The notes beneath the pieces are model-generated. The model searched no databases. It saw only the letters and a program-made list of their open reading frames with translations, and was not told the DNA's origin. Shown piece after piece: positions 5,459-52,832 of a stretch of 64,000 nt of DNA. The translations under genes and the position numbers were made by a program. The stretch lies in NCBI RefSeq assembly GCF_057098645.1, contig NZ_CM169472.1; one strand, written 5' to 3'. The first letter of the stretch is position 1, and every line of letters begins with the position of its first letter.

Positions 5459-7999
5459 ATGAAAAATAGAAATCGTATGATCGTGAACTGTGTTACTGCT
5501 TCCCTGATGTATTATTGGAGCTTACCTGCACTGGCTGAGCAGTCGTCAAGTGAGATAAAGATTGTTCGCGATGAATACGGCATGCCGCATATTTATGCCA
5601 ATGATACATGGCACCTATTTTATGGCTATGGCTATGTAGTAGCACAAGATCGCCTTTTTCAGATGGAAATGGCACGTCGCAGTACTCAAGGGACTGTCGC
5701 GGAAGTGCTTGGCAAAGATTTTGTGAAATTTGATAAAGATATCCGTCGTAACTACTGGCCGGATGCTATCCGGGCGCAAATTGCTGCCCTTTCCCCAGAG
5801 GATATGTCCATTCTGCAAGGCTACGCTGATGGAATGAATGCCTGGATTGATAAGGTAAATACCAATCCAGAGACGCTCTTACCAAAACAGTTTAATACAT
5901 TTGGCTTTACTCCTAAGCGCTGGGAACCGTTTGATGTCGCGATGATATTTGTGGGCACCATGGCAAACCGCTTCTCTGATAGCACTAGCGAAATTGATAA
6001 TCTGGCACTGCTAACGGCTTTAAAAGATAAATATGGTGTATCACAAGGCATGGCGGTATTTAATCAGTTGAAATGGCTGGTAAACCCATCAGCGCCAACC
6101 ACTATTGCCGTACAAGAGAGTAGCTACCCACTTAAATTTAATCAGCAAAACTCGCAAACAGCAGCTCTGTTGCCACGCTACGATTTACCTGCACCAATGC
6201 TTGACCGACCAGCAAAAGGGGCGGATGGCGCACTGCTGGCGTTAACAGCAGGGAAGAACCGGGAAACTATTGCTGCACAATTTGCACAGGGTGGTGCCAA
6301 TGGTCTGGCGGGGTATCCAACGACCAGCAATATGTGGGTGATCGGCAAAAGCAAAGCCCAGGATGCGAAAGCAATCATGGTAAATGGTCCGCAGTTTGGC
6401 TGGTATGCGCCTGCGTATACTTATGGTATTGGTCTGCACGGTGCTGGTTATGATGTCACTGGCAATACACCATTTGCCTATCCTGGGCTGGTTTTTGGTC
6501 ATAATGGTGTGATTTCCTGGGGATCAACGGCAGGTTTCGGCGATGATGTCGATATTTTTGCTGAACGGCTGTCGGCAGAGAAACCAGGCTACTACTTGCA
6601 TAATGGTAAGTGGGTGAAAATGTTAAGCCGTGAAGAAACCATTATGGTGAAAAATGGTCAGGCAGAGACCTTTACTGTCTGGCGCACGGTGCATGGCAAC
6701 ATTATCCAAACTGACCAGACGACACAAACGGCTTACGCTAAATCCCGCGCCTGGGATGGTAAAGAGGTGGCGTCTTTGCTGGCCTGGACTCATCAGATGA
6801 AGGCCAAAAATTGGCAGGAGTGGACACAGCAGGCAGCAAAACAAGCACTGACCATCAACTGGTACTATGCTGATGTGAACGGCAATATTGGTTATGTTCA
6901 TACTGGTGCTTATCCGGATCGTCAATCAGGCCATGATCCGCGATTACCCGTTCCTGGCACGGGAAAATGGGACTGGAAAGGGCTATTGCCTTTTGAAATG
7001 AACCCTAAGGTGTATAACCCCCAGTCGGGATATATTGCTAACTGGAACAATTCTCCCCAAAAAGATTATCCCGCTTCGGATCTGTTTGCCTTTTTGTGGG
7101 GTGGTGCAGATCGCGTTACGGAGATCGACCGACTGCTTGAGCAAAAGCCACGCTTAACTGCTGATCAGGCATGGGATGTTATTCGCCAAACCAGTCGTCA
7201 GGATCTTAACCTGAGGCTTTTTTTACCTACTCTGCAAGCAGCGACATCTGGTTTGACACAGAGCGATCCGCGCCGTCAGTTGGTGGATACATTAACACGT
7301 TGGGATGGCATCAATTTGCTTAATGATGATGGTAAAACCTGGCAGCAGCCAGGCTCTGCCATCCTGAACGTTTGGCTGACCAGTATGTTGAAGCGTACCG
7401 TAGTGGCTGTTGTACCTATGCCATTTGATAAGTGGTACAGCGCCAGTGGCTACGAAACAACCTAGGACGGTCCAACTGGTTCGCTGAATATAAGTGTTGG
7501 AGCAAAAATTTTGTATGAGGCGGTGCAGGGAGACAAATCACCAATCCCACAGGCGGTTGATCTGTTTGCCGGGAAATCACAGCAGGAGGTTGTGTTGGCT
7601 GCGCTGGAAGATACCTGGGAGACTCTTTCCAAACGCTATGGCAATAATGTGAGTAACTGGAAAACACCTGCAATGGCCTTAACGTTCCGGGCAAATAATT
7701 TCTTTGGCGTACCGCAGGCCGCAGCGGAAGAAGCGCGTCATCAGGCGGAGTATCAAAACCGTGGAACAGAAAACGATATGATTGTCTTCTCACCAACGAC
7801 AAGCGATCGTCCGGTGCTTGCCTGGGATGTGGTCGCACCCGGTCAGAGTGGATTTATTGCTCCCGATGGAACAGTTGATAAGCACTATGAAGATCAGCTG
7901 AAAATGTACGAAAATTTTGGTCGTAAGTCGCTCTGGTTAACGAAGCAGGATGTGGAGGCGCATAAGGAGTCGCAGGAAGTGTTGCACGTTCAGAGATAA
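5459..7999 (+). pseudogene. pga: Penicillin G acylase (amidase) precursor gene interrupted by a single in-frame TAG at 7463..7465
   Basis: ORF 5459..7465 (668 aa, [74 protein letters not shown]…) and ORF 7511..7999 (…LHVQR) are in the same frame separated only by TAG; the combined 846 codons match the E. coli penicillin G acylase precursor. Confidence 0.85.
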
Positions 8000-41639: not shown

Positions 41640-41800
<161 letters not shown>

Positions 41801-43789: not shown

Positions 43790-44467
43790 ATGAAGTGGGA
43801 CTGGATTTTCTTTGATGCCGATGAAACGCTGTTTACCTTTGACTCATTCACCGGCCTGCAGCGGATGTTTCTTGATTACAGCGTCAACTTTACCGCTGAA
43901 GATTTTCAGGACTATCAGGCCGTTAACAAGCCACTGTGGGTGGATTATCAAAACGGCGCGATCACTTCATTACAGCTTCAGCACGGGCGTTTCGAGAGCT
44001 GGGCCGAACGGCTGAAAGTTGAAGCAGGCTTGCTTAACGATGCCTTTATTAATGCGATGGCGGAAATCTGTACGCCGTTGCCGGGCGCGGTTTCTCTGCT
44101 TAACGCCATTCGTGGCAACGCTAAAATCGGCATCATCACCAACGGTTTTAGCGCCTTGCAGCAAGTGCGTCTGGAACGGACGGGCCTGCGTGATTACTTC
44201 GATTTGCTGGTGATTTCCGAAGAAGTTGGCGTTGCCAAACCGAATAAGAAAATTTTCGATTATGCGCTGGAACAGGCGGGCAATCCTGACCGTTCACGCG
44301 TGCTGATGGTTGGCGACACTGCCGAGTCCGATATTCTCGGTGGCATCAACGCCGGGCTTGCGACCTGCTGGCTGAATGCGCACAATCGCGAGCAACCAGA
44401 AGGCATCGCGCCCACCTGGACCGTTTCTTCGTTGCACGAACTGGAGCAGCTCCTGTGTAAACACTGA
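43790..44467 (+). CDS. yjjG: HAD-family pyrimidine 5'-nucleotidase YjjG
   Basis: 225-aa [20 protein letters not shown]… with HAD motif I DxDxT. Confidence 0.85.
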
Positions 44468-44557
44468 TTGCCTCCCCCCCGTTGATGGGTAAAATAGCCG
44501 CAATTTTTCGTTTTCAACAAGCGCGGCGCGATGCCGCTTACTCAAGAAGAAAGAATT

Positions 44558-44632
44558 ATGACGTTGTCTCCTTATTTGCAAGAGGTGGCGAAGCGCCGCA
44601 CTTTTGCCATTATTTCTCACCCCAATAATTAA
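44558..44632 (+). pseudogene. prfC: 5' remnant of peptide chain release factor 3 gene, truncated by prophage insertion
   Basis: ATG 44558 gives [22 protein letters not shown] then NN-stop; the expected continuation DAGKTT (GTPase P-loop) is missing and AT-rich phage DNA follows. Confidence 0.75.
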
Positions 44633-44779
44633 GCCCAAATTAAAGCTCTTTTACTCTTTCAAAGTCCTTTCAGTTAATTGAGTGTTAATCATATAACTCA
44701 TTTAATAACATGATGTTATGTGGTTTCTTTAATTGAAAATTCTTTCATGTAACTTTAAATCGATCAGGTTGCTTTCATC

Positions 44780-44852
44780 AAAAATCTGTACATGTGCTTG
44801 TACATAATGTACAAAACAGCAGAGGTGGTTTTTTATTTGTACAAGGTGAGTA
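44780..44852. repeat. TGTACA-containing repeats upstream of int (candidate arm-type or operator-like sites)
   Basis: tgtacatgtgcttgtacataatgtacaaaac … tttgtacaagg: four TGTACA motifs within about 60 bp. Confidence 0.35.
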
Positions 44853-46091
44853 ATGGCGCTGTCTGATGCGTGGTTGCGTTCAGTCGTTGGAAAGGAACGT
44901 GATAAGGTTTTGGTTAAATCCGATCGTGATGGTCTGTCTGTCAGAGTATCACCGAAAGGTCGCGTAGTGTTCCAATATCGTTATCAATGGGCAGGGAAAG
45001 GTGAGCGCCTTGATATCGGAACTTACCCGGCAACTGGATTAAAAGAGGCCAGAGAAGAAGTTATCCGTCTCCGTGGTGAACTCGAGTCAAACCGCAATCC
45101 ACGATTAGTCAAGCAGGCTGAAAAACGAAAAGCTACTGAAGCTATGACGGTAGAGTCTGTGATCCGTGCCTGGTATGAAGCATATTGTGTAAAAAATAAA
45201 AAAGGTTCTGAACAGATACTCCGCTCGTTTGAGCTGCACCTGTTCTCTAAAATCGGGAATATCCCTCACGATGCAGCTACATTGCATGATTGGTTAGAAG
45301 TCCTGGAGCCTCTTAGCACTAAGACTCCAGCAATAGCAGACCGATTGCTAATTAACGCAAAGCAGGCCCATGTCTGGGCGTATAAGAGAAAGCTCATTGA
45401 AACTCGCCCGCTGTCGGATATCACGGGTAAAGATATGGATATCCGTAAAGGTCAGAAGAAACGGTTTCTGACACATGATGAAATTAAAATCCTTTATGCT
45501 GCGATCGATGGTTCTCGAATGGTTCCCAAATACCGGGCCTTCATTAAACTATTGCTGCATTTCGGCTGTCGTAGTTCAGAGCTGATTACTGCCAGGGTGG
45601 ATGATTTTGATTTCATTAATAAGGTATGGACTGTACCGCCAGAACGACATAAGACAGGTGATATAACAGGCGAACCGCTAAAGCGCCCCATTATTGAACC
45701 GGTTGAAGAGCTTATAAAATACGTTATCTCTATGAACAACGGTTCCGATATGCTTTTTACCAAGGAAGGAAGCAAGGAGCCAGTTGGTCGGACATCATTG
45801 CAGTCGCTGCCTTACAATTTAATGCAGTACGCATGGCGGCGTTTGGGGTATCAATTTCCTCATTGGTCTCTTCATGATTTGAGACGAACAGCACGAACAA
45901 ACTTTTCTGATCTTACTGCGCCTCATATTGCTGAAATAATGCTCGGTCATAAACTGCCAGGGGTATGGCAAGTTTATGATAAGAGCGATTATCTAGAAGA
46001 ACAGCGTAAAGCCTATCAGGCATGGTGGGATAGGGTTGATTCGATTCTTACTTACACTAATTTAGGTTCCAACAGACAGCCTATTGAATAA
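44853..46091 (+). CDS. int: Phage tyrosine integrase (P4-type family)
   Basis: 412-aa ORF with catalytic-domain motifs (…HFGCRSSELITARVDDF…, …HDLRRTARTNFSDL…, …GHKLPGVWQVYDKSDYLEEQRK…); first gene inside the junction. Confidence 0.9.
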   Translation: MALSDAWLRSVVGKERDKVLVKSDRDGLSVRVSPKGRVVFQYRYQWAGKGERLDIGTYPATGLKEAREEVIRLRGELESNRNPRLVKQAEKRKATEAMTVESVIRAWYEAYCVKNKKGSEQILRSFELHLFSKIGNIPHDAATLHDWLEVLEPLSTKTPAIADRLLINAKQAHVWAYKRKLIETRPLSDITGKDMDIRKGQKKRFLTHDEIKILYAAIDGSRMVPKYRAFIKLLLHFGCRSSELITARVDDFDFINKVWTVPPERHKTGDITGEPLKRPIIEPVEELIKYVISMNNGSDMLFTKEGSKEPVGRTSLQSLPYNLMQYAWRRLGYQFPHWSLHDLRRTARTNFSDLTAPHIAEIMLGHKLPGVWQVYDKSDYLEEQRKAYQAWWDRVDSILTYTNLGSNRQPIE

Positions 46092-46196
46092 TGAATAGAC
46101 ATACAGAGTAAGAAAATAGTAATGATTCTTGGATTATAATTAACTGGTTGCTGATATTTTGATTTGCCGATTTATGAAGAGACGGTCATTATACTT

Positions 46197-46237
46197 ATAA
46201 AAACACCACTCCTTATCCTTACAGAAATAAGGAGTGG
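46197..46237 (-). terminator. Terminator of the cargo operon (bidirectional, between convergent int and the cargo gene)
   Basis: 11-bp stem ccactccttat / ataaggagtgg with loop ccttacagaa; on the minus strand it is followed by TTTTTATAA. Confidence 0.5.
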
Positions 46238-46243
46238 AAACAG

Positions 46244-47851
46244 TTATGGCTGAGACTCTGGTTTAGCAATCTCGTTTATAAATTTCTTAGCTACAACAGT
46301 CTCATACTTTCTATAATCATCAAGATATTGAACATCTATATGATTTTCGTAGCGAGCATTAAATTTATTTGCAGCCCCTGTTTTATCATCTTTACGTTCA
46401 TCCGTTGGTCTGAAAAATTTATGGTAGCGGCGGGGTGATACCCCCTCAAAATCACAAAATATTACTTTGGAAGATTCTTCGTTCTTTGTTATTGCATCAT
46501 TATGCAGATCAAGAGCAAGACTTTTATCAAATGGCTCTATATATACTACTTTTTTTATTCCAGCTGCGACAATATGCCTTGCACAGTTGTGGCAGGGATA
46601 GGTTGTCGTAAAAAGAATTTTATCTTTAGTATCGCCGTTTTGTTTTCTAGCCATTGATGTAATGACGTCCATTTCAGCATGAATTGATCTGGAGTACTCC
46701 ATTACACTTGATATTTTGCTGTCTTTGTAAATGCCTTCTGCAATATTATCTAATTTGTTTAGAAGTCGTGTTATATTAATATCGGCAACAGTTTGTCCTG
46801 CGGAAATACCTAATACAGTTCTTACTTCGGTTGATAATATGCTTTTTATACGGTCTTTAATTTTTAGCTTGTTTGCATCATTATAACACTTACCACTTTT
46901 GTGAACGCATCGATGATCGTTATCAAAATCATCACTGCTATACAACCCGCCACCAGCTTTAGGTACGTCGTTCTTACCCACGGCAAGCAAATTCCCTTCA
47001 TCATCAAACAGTGCAGCCCCTACTTGACGTGATAAACAAGCTGATTGTAATGATGTTGAAAAGGCAGCATACATACCTTTCTCGTTAAAAGTTGGTGTTA
47101 AACCATTTTTGCCATGAATAAGACCGAAAAACCGATCAATCTTCTTCTTTAATTCACTTTTTTGGCTGAAGTTATTTTTAATAAAAAAATCTGAATCAAG
47201 AATGGTTTCCCCGGTTCTTTGTCCATACGGATCAGAGGATTTATTATCAATATTGATAATTAAATGAAGGTCGTTCTTTGTCGATTCGTCATCAATGAGA
47301 TTCTGAATTCGGTAATCTAAATCGCGCAAAACTCCTAACAAATAGAAATTATGCTGATATATAACTCTGAATAACTCTATTTCTTCCGGCCTTTTGAATT
47401 GATCAATGATGAAGACAGTACCTTTATATTCATCATTATTATAATCATTATTATAATCAATATTATTTTTCTCTGCTGCGATTGCTGCAATAGCAGCTTC
47501 TGCAAGCAACTCATTTTTTTTGTAATGTTTACGAAGTTTATTGGCAATATCCTGGAGTTTTAAATGTCTATTAGCTTGTGTGCTTTCGGATACCTTCAGT
47601 GCTGCTGGCTCAAAATATAATGGGTTTTCCATAAGCGCACTTATGCGGATGTGTACAACATTATACCCCCATTCTTTGGATATCTCTTCGATAATTTTGT
47701 TTATCGTTCTCATGCCACATCCAACATATCCACACAATCCAAGATAAATATCTTTTGATTGTCGTGAATTCACAATCTCAAGTGATGATGCCGATGTTGA
47801 GCCTTTTTTTTCATTCAGCTTTTGTGGAGTTTTTTTTGCTGCTTCAGCCAT
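46244..47851 (-). CDS. Fusion protein: N-terminal degenerate P-loop kinase-like domain + C-terminal zinc-dependent deoxycytidylate/cytidine deaminase domain; candidate antiphage nucleotide-depletion enzyme
   Basis: 535-aa ORF. C-terminal half has the CDA-fold motifs …RQVGAALFDDEGNLLAVGKNDVP…, …SIHAEMDVITSMA… and …TYPCHNCARHIVAAGIKKVVYIEPF… (H-A-E / P-C-x-x-C). N-terminal half has a glycine-rich loop DIYLGLCGYVGCGMRT and a hydrophobic strand followed by Asp (TVFIIDQF). AT-rich; lies between int and xis. Confidence 0.6.
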   Translation of the reverse strand: MAEAAKKTPQKLNEKKGSTSASSLEIVNSRQSKDIYLGLCGYVGCGMRTINKIIEEISKEWGYNVVHIRISALMENPLYFEPAALKVSESTQANRHLKLQDIANKLRKHYKKNELLAEAAIAAIAAEKNNIDYNNDYNNDEYKGTVFIIDQFKRPEEIELFRVIYQHNFYLLGVLRDLDYRIQNLIDDESTKNDLHLIINIDNKSSDPYGQRTGETILDSDFFIKNNFSQKSELKKKIDRFFGLIHGKNGLTPTFNEKGMYAAFSTSLQSACLSRQVGAALFDDEGNLLAVGKNDVPKAGGGLYSSDDFDNDHRCVHKSGKCYNDANKLKIKDRIKSILSTEVRTVLGISAGQTVADINITRLLNKLDNIAEGIYKDSKISSVMEYSRSIHAEMDVITSMARKQNGDTKDKILFTTTYPCHNCARHIVAAGIKKVVYIEPFDKSLALDLHNDAITKNEESSKVIFCDFEGVSPRRYHKFFRPTDERKDDKTGAANKFNARYENHIDVQYLDDYRKYETVVAKKFINEIAKPESQP

Positions 47852-47861
47852 TGCTAATTAC

Positions 47862-48047
47862 CTAGTCGAAAACTATATCAGTATTTATTATTTCAAAAAA
47901 TGCATCAAGAATTTCTTTATTTTTCTTTTTACTTTCAAATGAAATGACATTATCTTGATTAAATGTTGTTAATTCAATGCAGATAGAATCAACCTGATCA
48001 TTGGCGGCGATGCTCGATTCTATTTCATTAAATGCTATTACATTCAT
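47862..48047 (-). CDS. Small acidic hypothetical protein co-oriented with and 10 nt upstream of the deaminase gene
   Basis: 61-aa ORF MNVIAFNEIESSIAANDQVDSICIELTTFNQDNVISFESKKKNKEILDAFFEIINTDIVFD with ATG start; same AT-rich composition as the downstream gene; weak Shine-Dalgarno. Confidence 0.35.
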   Translation of the reverse strand: MNVIAFNEIESSIAANDQVDSICIELTTFNQDNVISFESKKKNKEILDAFFEIINTDIVFD

Positions 48048-48391
48048 TTATCTTATCCAAACATAATAAAAAACCATATGGCCTTTAGTGTACAACAAAA
48101 CCATACTCTTTCCCCTCATTTTAGAGGGGGAAGTGTGGTCCACATCATGTTTTTTCCCACCCATGAAAATGTTCACCTAGGCTGGTGATGCATTTTATGT
48201 ACATCAACTCTTTGAGTTGAATCATTATTTTAGTATTTTTTCTATCATTGTGTAAATGTCTTCGTTTCAATACATCATGCTTGGGGAGCGGTCCCCGTTT
48301 CCTGATAATTAATGCTTGTGGATAGCAACGTCCGTGCCTGTATCGCTCAGACAGACGCTTACCGTGCCATAGACGTGTCTGTTCACATACG

Positions 48392-48586
48392 TCATTCAAT
48401 AACTCCTGCAAACCTGTAAATCTTGCGTGAAGCCCATTTATTTGGGCATGATTTAATATCAGGATCTGGAAAATCAGGCCTGTACTTCTGGCCAGTTCTC
48501 CGGTTTACGCTGTTCCAGCGAAGAACTGTCGATACTGAAACGCCACAGAAGTCGGCGACTTGTTTAGTTGTCATTAAGTTGTTCAT
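48392..48586 (-). CDS. xis: Excisionase / AlpA-family DNA-binding protein
   Basis: 64-aa ORF MNNLMTTKQVADFCGVSVSTVLRWNSVNRRTGQKYRPDFPDP… (winged-helix excisionase signature). Confidence 0.7.
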   Translation of the reverse strand: MNNLMTTKQVADFCGVSVSTVLRWNSVNRRTGQKYRPDFPDPDIKSCPNKWASRKIYRFAGVIE

Positions 48587-49206
48587 TACTTCACCTCCTG
48601 CGGCGGTTCCGGTAGCGGCATCCAGTGGGTTACTTTCGATGCCGGTTCTTCTCCATTGTCAGTAACTGCCCACCATTTGTTTCTCGAACAATCATAATAC
48701 CCTTCGAAGGTATCGCACTCAGTCCAGCCGTAAGACTTACCCCGACACCAAACATACTGTTTATCGTTCGGCATTCGCTCACTACAGCTTATCCAACCAT
48801 CCGGAGTTACCGGAGAGTTGCCCGACAGCTTGTTCAACTTGTAAGTCTGGCTTACAGGTTTGGCACCATGAAGCATGGTGGCGCGGCAGGCGTTCCAGCC
48901 TTCATCAAAACCGACTATGCCATTATTTAAAGACGGACGAGCATCTGGCACCACCAGTACTGGCTTGGCTATATATAGCGGCTGAACATACCAGCCCTTT
49001 GATAACCAACTGTCAGCAATGTTTTTGCTCCTGGTTATTGCCGGAATACCTAAGCCATTGTCTGAATGCAGCCATGCCACCGGCTCCTCTTCCAGCGATG
49101 CCAGAGCAATTTCATAAGCACGGCGCTCAATATCGTCTCGAACCTCTAGGCTGCTGATTCGTTCTTTGATTTCTTTAATCAGTTCTTTATTGGTAAATGT
49201 GGTCAT
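48586..49206 (-). CDS. Prophage early protein (DUF551 / YfdT-like)
   Basis: 206-aa ORF, Cys/Trp-rich C-terminal half (…WISCSERMPNDKQYVWCRGKSYGWTECDTFEGYYDCSRNKWW…); stop/start overlap with neighbours. Confidence 0.5.
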   Translation of the reverse strand: MTTFTNKELIKEIKERISSLEVRDDIERRAYEIALASLEEEPVAWLHSDNGLGIPAITRSKNIADSWLSKGWYVQPLYIAKPVLVVPDARPSLNNGIVGFDEGWNACRATMLHGAKPVSQTYKLNKLSGNSPVTPDGWISCSERMPNDKQYVWCRGKSYGWTECDTFEGYYDCSRNKWWAVTDNGEEPASKVTHWMPLPEPPQEVK

Positions 49207-49568
49207 TATGCTCCAGCCTCCGGCGCTTTGGGTATTACTGCCCAGTGAGTGATATTGAAGTTTTCAAGGTCCCCGACCTGAAATGTCCACTGCCATTCTC
49301 CGGTTTCTTTTTGTCCCCAGGTGTACCAGAGAGAACGCCAGCCAATCAGCCAGCCTTCTCCGTTAGCATCAAATAACAGAACACTTTCATTTGCTGGTGG
49401 CAGTTCAGCTGACACTGGTATTATTTTGTTTTCCAGTGCCGCACATTTAGCTTCAAGCGCGTCGAATTTACGTACCAGGTACTCAGCATTTGTTTCGTTC
49501 ACTTTCAGATCTCGCGGTACACATTTCCCGCGAAGAAACCCTTCCATTTCGAAAACATTCATGCGCAT
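49206..49568 (-). CDS. Prophage early protein (YfdS-like)
   Basis: 120-aa ORF in an overlapping operon arrangement. Confidence 0.5.
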   Translation of the reverse strand: MRMNVFEMEGFLRGKCVPRDLKVNETNAEYLVRKFDALEAKCAALENKIIPVSAELPPANESVLLFDANGEGWLIGWRSLWYTWGQKETGEWQWTFQVGDLENFNITHWAVIPKAPEAGA

Positions 49569-50095
49569 TTGCGTAACTCCGATAATTCGTTAAAGCGTTC
49601 CATAAACATCCCGTAGGCATGGCCTGGAGCCAGTGGAATCACGTTGATCATCTCTGTTGCCGGGATACCTTCCAGCACAGGCCAGAAAGAGCCATCATCA
49701 AGCCCGAGATCGCGGCGTTCGGTTGCCAGCATGATGAGATCGGCATATTTCACGGGTGTACTCATAACCGGGGGTAACCCGTATTTCTCACGGATTACGG
49801 CGTCTATTTTTTCTTCCATCCGTTTATAGTCAGGAAGAAGGCGTTTCAGTGGAGCCGGGATGTCCTGGCAATACGCTTCTGTTGCATCATGCATTAACGC
49901 TTCAAAAGCAAATTCCTGCGGTACCAGTTTGCTGCAAAGCACCGCATGTTGGGCGACGCTGTAGAAGTGTGAAAGATGACCGGCAAAGCGACAGATATTT
50001 GAAAGGGAAACTGCGATATCGTTAATCACGATGTCGTCTTTATTTATCCTGTCATAATAAAAATGCTTCCCGGAAAAAGTTTTAATAAATGACAT
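49559..50095 (-). CDS. HD-domain phosphohydrolase, YfbR/YfdR-like 5'-deoxynucleotidase
   Basis: ORF 49559..50122; from MSFIKT… 178 aa; HD motif context (…NICRFAGHLSHFYSVAQHAVLCS…, …HDATEAYCQDIP…). Confidence 0.7.
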   Translation of the reverse strand: MSFIKTFSGKHFYYDRINKDDIVINDIAVSLSNICRFAGHLSHFYSVAQHAVLCSKLVPQEFAFEALMHDATEAYCQDIPAPLKRLLPDYKRMEEKIDAVIREKYGLPPVMSTPVKYADLIMLATERRDLGLDDGSFWPVLEGIPATEMINVIPLAPGHAYGMFMERFNELSELRKCA

Positions 50096-50222
50096 TTTGT
50101 TCTCCACGTATATGCGCTGCACCGCGCTGAATTTTGGTTAAAGAAAACCCTCGCCATCAGGCGATTATTGAGTCAATTATGTTTCCATAAATGCCCCCGC
50201 AGGGGCATTTGCAGTAAGGAAA

Positions 50223-51047
50223 TCAGGCGGTAAAAGTACCAATAAAGGTTTCTACTTTGCTGTCTTTGAGTTTCTCAACAAGCAGATCACGAAATTCGTT
50301 AGCCATTTCTTCCTGCACTGCTTCCAGCTGAATAATGCGCAGAACCAGTACAGGACGATCGCCAGTGATAATGCTGAGGCGTAATTTAAACGGACGTTCT
50401 TGCAGGCCTTCAAACGGAACGCATTTAAATTCAAATGCCACTGGCATAATGTCTTTGGTCTTCGCTTCGACAGATTCCATCAGGGAGCGTTTGCCGCTGA
50501 AGTCATTATCTTCAAAATCAGCGGTCTGGTTTGCTTCAATCGTGATTTTACGGACTGCCGCAGCCGCTTTTGTTGCCTGAATGGCGTCACCATTAGCATC
50601 AAAGCCCACAAGGTAGTCGGCCCAGTCTTCAATCCATTCTGCCAGTGACTTCTGGGAGTTACGCTCGCCGTTAACAGACAACAGGGCAGAGAACGGTGCT
50701 GTCTTTTTCAGTTTGAGAGTGGCGGTGTTATCTGCGTGACCTGGTTCATCAATAGTACCCAGGTTAAGCACACTGACGGCACGCATATTATCAGCATCGA
50801 TAAAGCAGCGGGTGCCTTCATCTGCAAGATCTTTAGAATAACGGGTAAAATCATCGATGCTGGCAGTGGAAAGCGCGCCACGGAAACGGAAGCGATTTAA
50901 ATTAAATTTTTCCAGATCATGAATGCGGAAATTCTCAGGCAATGCCACAGCATCGGCACCAATCTTACTGATAATTTCATTAACACCCTGAGCAGAAATA
51001 AGGGCATGGATTTGATTAATTGCGGTTGCGTCTAAGTTCTGAGACAT
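50223..51047 (-). CDS. Prophage protein, YfdQ-like (DUF2303)
   Basis: 274-aa [51 protein letters not shown]…; length and position match the CPS-53 yfdQ-type gene. Confidence 0.55.
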
Positions 51048-51112
51048 AATAAGTCCTCACTATATAAAGATATTCAGTGATGAGATAAATAATCAGTTAA
51101 TTAAGAACGATA

Positions 51113-51475
51113 TTAATGACCTGCTGCGCGTAGTTTTCCGTCAGGTTCACCGGCAAGAGTCAGTAATTGTCCCTGGTCTTCCTGCAGAATAGTCAGGCGA
51201 CCACCGCGATTGACATACATCGGCGTTTCGGTGGTGTCTTCTTCGGAAATTTTCCCGCGGTTAGTCGGGCGAACATATGAGAGTTTGTGTTTGATTTTCA
51301 CACGGTTCTCATCAAATGGTTCGATTTCCAGGTTGAGTGAGACCTTACCTTTGGTTTTCGTGTTCATCACACCGGAAGCGACTTCACTGAGAACTGCGCC
51401 GATTTTGGTTTCAAATACGCCGCCGTCCAGCTCCCCGATAAATGCCTGCACATCAGTACTGCGTTCGCTAGCCAT
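51113..51475 (-). CDS. Prophage protein, YfdP-like; first gene of the early-left operon
   Basis: Likely start at ATG (MASERSTDVQAFIGELDGGVF…) preceded by AGGAG; the ORF-track start at 51706 is a TTG and the intervening translation looks non-coding. Confidence 0.5.
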   Translation of the reverse strand: MASERSTDVQAFIGELDGGVFETKIGAVLSEVASGVMNTKTKGKVSLNLEIEPFDENRVKIKHKLSYVRPTNRGKISEEDTTETPMYVNRGGRLTILQEDQGQLLTLAGEPDGKLRAAGH

Positions 51476-52075
51476 TTTGCTGCTCCTCATCATATCGACC
51501 CTGCAAGGTCGGTTGGTTTCTCCACAAAACAGAGAAGAACACCTGCGGTGGCAGCCGCCCGGATGGATTGGGTTATGAGCCCGTCGTCCGGTGATGCTCT
51601 TCTCTGTTTTGTAAAAAGAGCGGTACCAGCCGGAAGCAAGTGTACAAACTGGTACCGCCAAAGCAGTGGCTGTTGTGGTGGGCTTGTCACTCAGGCGTAT
51701 GGTCAACCTGACAATCCGGTGTCCTCAACGGGGAAAGAGTAACCCCGCCATACTTACCGCCGCGCCATTTCGCGGATTACCACAACGCTGAGAGCACTTA
51801 GCCAGTTACAGCACCACACTTTGTCGCGGCTCCATAAATGCCCTCATCGTTGCACCCTGGTCTCTTCCCAGGCGTCAAACCGAATCGCCACGCTGGTTAG
51901 GCGTCTTATCAGCATCATCATTGACTTGCACATTCCGGCTACCTGGTTTGTTTGCCCGAGCAAGGAGTGGATTGTCCCCTTTAACGTCCCCAGACCGCTA
52001 ACGACGCATGTGCCATACGCCGTGTTACAACCAAATTTTGTTTAATCTTGCCTGTGCTGTGTTTCTTTTAGATAC

Positions 52076-52104
52076 ATTATGTATCCCAAGGGTACATTGT
52101 CAAG
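52076..52104 (-). promoter_or_regulatory. Candidate pL-type early-left promoter with overlapping operator
   Basis: On the minus strand TTGACA (52099..52104), 17-nt spacer, ATAATG (52076..52081); the spacer contains a GTACC…GGaTAC operator-like half-site pair. Confidence 0.45.
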
Positions 52105-52105
52105 T

Positions 52106-52129
52106 ATAAAAAAACCTGCCGAAGCAGGT
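52106..52129 (-). terminator. Rho-independent terminator downstream of cI
   Basis: cctgccgaagcagg hairpin flanked by an A-run (U-run on the cI transcript). Confidence 0.55.
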
Positions 52130-52141
52130 TATAAATATTGA

Positions 52142-52816
52142 TTAGGCCTTTATTATGTATCTTCTTGGTTTTCCTGAGAAAATCACTGTACCAATTATAG
52201 AGCAATTACCGTTGATCTTAATGTAAGGTTCAGGCCAGTTTGGGTTTAATGCTTTGAGGTAACGCTGTGTTCCATCTTCTATCAACCGCTTGAAGGTGGT
52301 TTCGCCTGTATCGTGCATCAATGCAATAACGTCGTCACCGTGGCAGGCAGGGACTTCAGGATCAACAAAAATCATGTCTCCCGGGCGGTACTCATCAATC
52401 ATTGAATCACCAATCACCCGCAAGATATAAGTCATTTCGCCACAGGGTACAGGGCAGGGGTAAGTTTCTGCTGTGCTCAAATCAACCTCAGAATAGCCAA
52501 CTTCTTTCCATGCTCCGGCCTGTACCCATGATATGACAGGGACTAACGTTATTTGTTTGTTAGTGATTGAAACATCAGGTTTTTTTGTGATGTTCGTGGT
52601 CTGGTGTTCTTGATCAAGCCATCCGACAGGCAGGTCGAAACATTTTTCGATGTGCCGCGCCATGCTGTCACCGATATTTTTAGTAGCACCATCTCCCATA
52701 AACCTGCTGGTCTGGGTTGGCTCGCGATCAATCATGGTGGCAAAGGAAGAATTCCCGCCAACACCATCTCTCAGTTTTCTGGCGTTAGACCGCCGGATGT
52801 CATGGACTGTTTTCAT
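52142..52816 (-). CDS. cI: Prophage repressor, cI-like (N-terminal DNA-binding domain + C-terminal S24 LexA-type peptidase)
   Basis: 224-aa ORF; C-terminal …LRVIGDSMIDEYRPGDMIFVDPEVPACHGDDVIALMHDTGETTFKRL… with Ser and Lys catalytic dyad context. Confidence 0.8.
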   Translation of the reverse strand: MKTVHDIRRSNARKLRDGVGGNSSFATMIDREPTQTSRFMGDGATKNIGDSMARHIEKCFDLPVGWLDQEHQTTNITKKPDVSITNKQITLVPVISWVQAGAWKEVGYSEVDLSTAETYPCPVPCGEMTYILRVIGDSMIDEYRPGDMIFVDPEVPACHGDDVIALMHDTGETTFKRLIEDGTQRYLKALNPNWPEPYIKINGNCSIIGTVIFSGKPRRYIIKA

Positions 52817-52832
52817 AAAGAAATTAAAACCT

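Follow-up and report, generated by a model that had tools for sequence, protein, structure and literature searches.

What has become of prfC at a locus where its reading frame stops after 24 codons? In the window, by which we mean the whole stretch of 64,000 nucleotides analysed here (contig NZ_CM169472.1 of assembly GCF_057098645.1), the gene for RF3 begins as usual and then breaks off, which raises the question of whether it has been lost or whether the short frame is one half of an exchange whose other half restores RF3. The window is E. coli chromosome, with the K-12 gene order kept upstream of the site (leuVPQ, rsmC, holD, rimI and yjjG). The remnant, an open reading frame on the plus strand at 44558..44632, opens with an ATG at 44558-44560, contains 22 native codons and closes with Asn-Asn and a TAA stop that are derived from phage DNA, the last base of the stop being 44632. 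The sequence-only reading had taken this frame for the 5' end of the RF3 gene, cut after ISHP by insertion of a prophage, and had called for an alignment to an uninterrupted prfC. The alignment to prfC of K-12 MG1655 (b4375) bears this out, as no mismatch to K-12 occurs in the intergenic DNA between yjjG and prfC or within the first 65 nt of the frame (44558-44622), and the identity stops at 44622, directly after the ISHP codons. From 44623 the window continues with CAATAATTAAGCCC..., whereas K-12 continues with GGACGCCGGTAAGACT, which encodes the DAGKTT P-loop, and at the junction the GC content drops from 0.55 to 0.36. The DNA on the right-hand side is that of a phage: the 19.4 kb up to the end of the window are 97.6% identical over 85% of their length to the temperate phage Ayreon, and the encoded integrase (Int) has 98.3% identity to its counterpart in the inducible phage cdtI (NC_009514; 98% of the length, tblastn). 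That the downstream DNA is native prfC in another frame is ruled out, since it matches phage attP base for base. The feature in the window is the attL of a prophage of the cdtI/Ayreon/Stx-phage type in prfC.

Alignment of attB, attL, attR and attP defines the core of this site. The sequence-only reading had placed it around 44600-44625, and an exact identity between attB and attP was indeed found within this interval: the 14 bp ATTATTTCTCACCC at 44609..44622 (plus strand), which cover the codons Ile18-Ile19-Ser20-His21-Pro22, are the same in attB of K-12 and in attP of phage cdtI. Strand exchange must have taken place within these 14 bp or at their edges. In cdtI and in Ayreon alike, attP is arranged as prfC mimic, core, P' arm and int, just as it is rebuilt from attL and attR, and positions 44609-44852 of the window match the cdtI attP locus (1975-2218) and the attP of Ayreon almost base for base. 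All four sites are consistent with one simple reciprocal exchange. In Ayreon the Ala17 codon is the host-like GCC and not GCA, which extends the identity of attP with attB from 14 to 20 bp (44603-44622) and might have been left by heteroduplex correction or by exchange in an earlier cycle of integration and excision.

The P' arm of attL (44623..44852, plus strand) comprises 230 bp with 29% GC and is near-identical to the right arm of the cdtI and Ayreon attP. Just upstream of int it carries four TGTACA repeats (44787-44792, 44799-44804, 44808-44813 and 44838-44843), out of nine in the whole 64 kb. The attP of cdtI contains eight TGTACA around the core, at -183, -114, -86 and -74 and at +178, +190, +199 and +229. 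In relatives of four other genera, repeats of GTACA lie at conserved distances from the start of int, and GTACA-containing GTGTACAAA pairs are present in both arms of attP of R997, an element of the SXT/R391 family. The TGTACA repeats are probably arm-type sites, to which the conserved N-terminal domain of Int would bind; as they are situated 10-70 bp ahead of the int start, any promoter of int would overlap with them.

Int itself (44853..46091, plus strand) is a tyrosine integrase of the P4/SXT type with 412 aa, which combines an arm-binding, a central and a catalytic domain (Arm-DNA-bind_3, PF13356; Phage_int_M, PF22022; Phage_integrase, PF00589) and belongs to a prfC-specific (SXT-cluster) lineage. 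Among 12 relatives the residues R240, K267, R344, H366 and Y375 are invariant and H341 is nearly so; we take these residues to be the catalytic set of tyrosine recombinases. The identity of Int is 96.6-97.5% to the integrases of Stx1a and Stx2c phages and 38% (E 1e-88) to that of R997. All four sampled among the relatives at 50-83% identity, from Pantoea stewartii, Shewanella, Pseudomonas and Acidovorax, reside at prfC, where a native prfC start, cut after ISHP, lies 200-230 bp upstream of int. The integrases of SXT and of phage cdt1, the latter being the one to which Int is 98.3% identical, have been placed in one prfC-inserting cluster, the SXT cluster of the IntSXT subgroup (Smyshlyaev 2021, PMC8138268), and both the three-domain architecture and the insertion at prfC, which is also seen for R997, are found here. 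The Pseudomonas and Acidovorax relatives, at about 51-52% identity, lie at prfC in islands without obvious phage genes, one of which has a second integrase and one a Mu-transposase-like gene, and the prfC-specific integrase is therefore common to mobile elements of several kinds. A search of IMG/VR for relatives of Int yielded nothing but E. coli prophages, near-identical and trimmed at int, and no distant substitute starts, and an RF3-start motif scan of IMG/VR loci gave 18 matched loci with the native remnant in each.

What, then, of the remainder of prfC? The attR of the window's own prophage lies beyond the end of the window, and the right junction was read instead in WWCOL-256, the closest relative with a complete genome. 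The upstream part of this attR runs ...TTGTACATAATCAAAGAGACAACAATT, then ATG ACA AGC CTT TTG GCC GCA GAG, and the phage-borne start goes on with GTA GCG AAA AGA AGA ACC TTT GCA ATT ATT TCT CAC CC; past the core, G GAT GCC GGT AAG... leads in frame to DAGKTT. The phage thus provides a substitute start of 21 codons with its own ATG, which in WWCOL-256 continues in frame into prfC from codon 23, and the same start is located directly left of the core in attP of cdtI and Ayreon, the genomes of which are virion-derived. The prfC gene of WWCOL-256 is annotated as intact and encodes a hybrid RF3 of 528 aa that is identical to K-12 RF3 at 520 of 521 positions from Glu9 onward, so that hybrid and native protein differ by a substitution of residues 2-8 (N-terminus MTSLLAAE in the hybrid, MTLSPYLQ in the native protein). 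An attR with a DinI-like neighbour occurs in 644 of 5426 complete genomes, and the attR of the window's own prophage presumably has the same phage-borne start as that of WWCOL-256. The DinI-like gene at the right prophage end of relatives points away from prfC and is preceded by two LexA-box-like sites (CTGT-N8-ACAG), located some 150-200 bp ahead of the prfC start that the phage supplies (WWCOL-256 attR locus ~5990-6050; cdtI attP locus 1720-1770).

Taken together, we consider it very likely that the feature is the attL of a lambdoid prophage which integrated by reciprocal exchange of the core and whose phage-borne start rebuilds RF3 at the other end. Int would recombine the 14-bp core of attP with the identical stretch in prfC codons 18-22, just before the GTPase P-loop. 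The native promoter, the ribosome-binding site and the first 22 codons would thereby be stranded at the left junction, where two phage codons and a stop follow, and the 21-codon start of the phage would be fused at the right junction to codon 23 onward to yield the 528-aa RF3. Excision would restore attB and produce a circle in which attP carries the ATGACAAGCC...CACCCCAATAATT junction. The int gene, 230 bp downstream of the remnant, might be expressed by read-through from the host prfC promoter and/or be autoregulated via the TGTACA sites. The right end in the window's own strain might conceivably be deleted or rearranged, which would speak against this mechanism.

But from where would the hybrid gene be transcribed? 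According to the sequence-only reading the prophage has to supply both a replacement 5' end and a promoter for prfC at the other junction. The 5' end is present at attR of WWCOL-256 and in two phage attP sites, whereas a scan of the conserved P arm of about 180 bp for the sigma-70 consensus on the prfC strand gave no convincing promoter. Position weight matrix (PWM) scans returned no more than marginal candidates in both arms. The best of the P arm, TTTTCT-17-CATAAT, scores 8.6, at about the 90th percentile of random pieces, and would leave almost no leader before the hybrid start. By comparison, the candidate native prfC promoter, a predicted TTGCCT-16-TAAAAT at 44468..44495 (plus strand), scores 13.0, near the maximum among random 180-bp pieces of the window; it is identical in sequence to K-12 and is the only promoter-like site that a consensus scan detects in 44400-44950. 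After integration this candidate is left upstream of the remnant and directed into the prophage towards int. A terminator scan from the remnant and native prfC promoter to int predicted none, so that read-through from this promoter into int would be possible. The predicted fold of the RNA from 44540-44870 is unremarkable (z = -1.7), and Rfam yields no match at the junction and upstream of it only the leu tRNAs and naRNA4. The latter, a nucleoid-associated RNA of the REP type, is located at 41652-41734 (plus strand) in the leuQ-rsmC gap (73 bits, gathering score 59.5).

These predictions also accommodate a bolder proposal, which we regard as unlikely, namely that integration swaps promoters between int and prfC, such that RF3 is set by a weak promoter in the phage arm and Int becomes constitutive. 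The substitute prfC start and its promoter would be directly upstream of int in the phage circle, and in the lysogen int would come to lie downstream of the strong prfC promoter of the host, no terminator being predicted between the two. The RF3 promoter in the phage arm would be overlapped by TGTACA sites, and LexA-box-like sites would be near it in ends of the DinI type. If this were true, the state of the prophage would set the dosage of RF3, and with it termination and quality control, in about one in eight E. coli genomes, and Int would be made constitutively, leaving the decision on excision to Xis alone.

RF3 is dispensable in the laboratory, and an intact reading frame is therefore by itself weak evidence of use. 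Could the insertion then simply silence prfC, the phage-borne start being a relic of the origin of attP and the lysogens being effectively deficient in RF3? We consider this quite improbable. The authentic promoter and ribosome-binding site are removed, the phage arm has no strong predicted promoter, and prfC has been counted among the genes disrupted by prophages (Bobay 2013, PMC3603311), all of which would fit with such silencing. The same N-terminal change was described for an Stx1 phage in O103, together with the statement that it was unknown whether that strain transcribes and translates prfC (Ogura 2007, PMC2323221). However, the eight nucleotide differences between host and phage in codons 9-22 are all synonymous (GTG/GTA, AAG/AAA, CGC/AGA twice with two changes each, ACT/ACC and GCC/GCA), and when eight changes were placed at random in 27 nt of this stretch the peptide was kept in none of 200,000 trials. 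Moreover, a third lineage, SXT/R391, retains the same peptide with other codons, KRRTFAII being encoded in R997 with CGA AGG ACC TTT GCT ATC ATC. This combination of synonymous differences and independent codon choice indicates a constraint at the level of the protein and thus argues that the phage-borne start is translated. The gene downstream of it shows no decay, as is evident from the near-complete identity to K-12 RF3, the exact sequence of the intact hybrid is found on at least 1000 contigs, and a passage in a preprint reports a promoter for SXT (bioRxiv 10.1101/2021.06.18.448947, citing Hochhut & Waldor 1999). Finally, the residues that precede the conserved stretch vary freely in the native RF3 starts of Pantoea, Shewanella, Pseudomonas and Acidovorax, so that RF3 probably tolerates the swap of residues 2-8. 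From the SXT precedent and the evolutionary evidence for translated phage codons we infer that the hybrid prfC is transcribed from within the P arm of the phage and translated, in keeping with the repair of RF3 by the integrating prophage.

The DNA that follows attL (44623..64000, about 19.4 kb) is the left part of a lambdoid prophage, which continues past the end of the window. Besides resembling Ayreon it matches Stx2c prophages at about 96% identity over 74% of its length, and WWCOL-256 harbours a syntenic lambdoid prophage of about 43 kb, from which attR is expected about 24 kb beyond the window end. The prophage of WWCOL-256 comprises genes for integrase, defence, early-left functions, CI/Cro-like proteins, replication, Q, lysis, terminase, head and tail. 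In the window the excisionase (recombination directionality factor; PHROG 1553, E 7.7e-36, full length) is encoded at 48392..48586 on the minus strand, in a leftward early operon and opposite to int, and a CI-like or LexA-family repressor (PHROG 4 transcriptional repressor, E 1.2e-48), whose counterpart in the syntenic prophage is annotated as 'LexA family protein', at 52142..52816, likewise on the minus strand. The gene for an anti-phage dCTP deaminase (46244..47851, minus strand; NCBIfam NF041025 equivalog, 464.7 bits with a cutoff of 400) lies outside the integration module and is cargo. In sibling prfC prophages its place, between int and the early-left genes, is taken by Dsr1 or an AIPR-family protein; the position looks like a hot spot of defence-gene exchange. 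The gap between the deaminase and xis genes contains a 61-aa open reading frame (47862-48047, minus strand) with a full-length match to PHROG 9966 of unknown function (E 1.9e-43).

There is hardly any chance that the inserted element is an SXT/R391-type integrative and conjugative element (ICE) or another non-phage island. The target site is that of SXT/R391, the core is nearly the same, the integrases are homologous, and the distant Int relatives of Pseudomonas and Acidovorax sit in islands. Yet members of SXT/R391 have integrases about 99% identical to IntSXT (PMC2791158), as opposed to the 38% found here to the R997 enzyme, and the visible left 19 kb, which are syntenic with Ayreon and cdtI, contain excisionase, CI-like repressor, Q antiterminator, lysis and methylase genes. 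No tra, setCD or setR backbone is present in the window or the syntenic relatives, which have phage genes instead, including a full set of head and tail genes in the 43-kb prophage. An SXT/R391 ICE is rejected on the grounds of both the integrase and the missing conjugative backbone. Next to negligible, finally, is the notion that the remnant is a local duplication or an assembly artefact with an intact native prfC elsewhere, which nothing that we found favours beyond the formal point that attR lies outside the window: the 64 kb contain one copy each of the att core and of the stretch coding for the RF3 N-terminus, the sole prfC of WWCOL-256 is the hybrid at attR, and the same junction is found in 699 of 5426 complete E. 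coli genomes from many laboratories (701-bp probe, 44300-45000, at 80% coverage or more), which rules out chance or faulty assembly.

With the prophage insertion and the rebuilding of RF3 as the preferred reading, the arrangement is a routine instance of a published and very common type and as such already known. The prfC site and the substitute start of the SXT/R391 ICEs were reportedly described by Hochhut and Waldor in 1999. For the phages, the site, the substitute start and the Int cluster have been published as well (Ogura 2007, PMC2323221; Smyshlyaev 2021, PMC8138268). For annotation it follows that the 24-codon open reading frame, which PGAP labels an incomplete pseudogene in sibling genomes, is not a gene but marks the attL of a very common prophage type, and that prfC in such strains should not be called 'disrupted'. 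The locus makes a textbook-style case of an element that targets a deeply conserved coding motif, the approach to the P-loop of RF3, and repairs it with a gene start of its own. It also bears on the question, raised in 2007, of the expression and the promoter of hybrid RF3 in phage lysogens and of the role of residues 2-8.

How does the element compare with known systems? Its closest counterparts are the lambdoid phages that reside in prfC, namely cdtI, the Stx1a and Stx2c phages (PMC2323221, PMC10132054), Ayreon, 2H10 and PhiR63_1, the integrases of which are 96.6-98.3% identical to Int. These phages share attP, P' arm, core and the 21-codon substitute start with the prophage described here, and their early region is lambdoid too. 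They differ only in cargo, which here is the dCTP deaminase next to int, and the visible part of the prophage lacks the stx or cdt genes of the Stx and cdtI phages. An integrase more than 95% identical, a junction that equals the right half of attP and lambdoid gene content together place the prophage in the cdtI type.

SXT/R391 elements such as R997 (NZ_KY433363.1) enter the same codons of prfC, and their core, ATTATTTCCCACCC as compared to ATTATTTCTCACCC here, differs at one of 14 positions. They too provide a start codon of their own and an N-terminal peptide that ends in KRRTFAII, and they have in common with the present prophage a homologous three-domain Int and GTACA repeats in the att arms. 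Then again, the substitute peptide of R997 (MANQDFLNEINKRR...) is unlike the one borne by the phage, and its int is directed towards the att site and convergent with xis, whereas in the present prophage int reads away from attL and xis is part of the early-left operon, 3.5 kb off. Above all, SXT/R391 is a conjugative element with tra, setCD and setR, the expected backbone genes being present in R997, and not a phage. The R997 sequence is deposited as 'plasmid pR997' (PLSDB) and is in fact the record of an SXT/R391 ICE cut at the att core; its joined ends read ...GCTATCATC followed directly by ATTATTTCCCACCC, so that the core is partly doubled and the join is not a true attP.

Elements that target dusA, for instance IMEVchUSA3 (bioRxiv 10.1101/2021.06.18.448947), likewise hit the 5' end of a housekeeping gene and restore its frame with a new promoter and an altered N-terminus; here the start is supplied in the same way, and the promoter presumably so. 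Different from the present case, they use another target gene and are mobilisable islands rather than phages. Phages that insert into the 3' ends of tRNA or protein genes carry a duplicate of the 3' end, as does phage 21 in icd. In both this type and the prfC type an element-borne copy of the displaced segment restores the gene. Replacement of a 3' end, however, calls for neither promoter nor start, whereas in prfC it is the 5' end that is exchanged and the signals for expression must come from the element.
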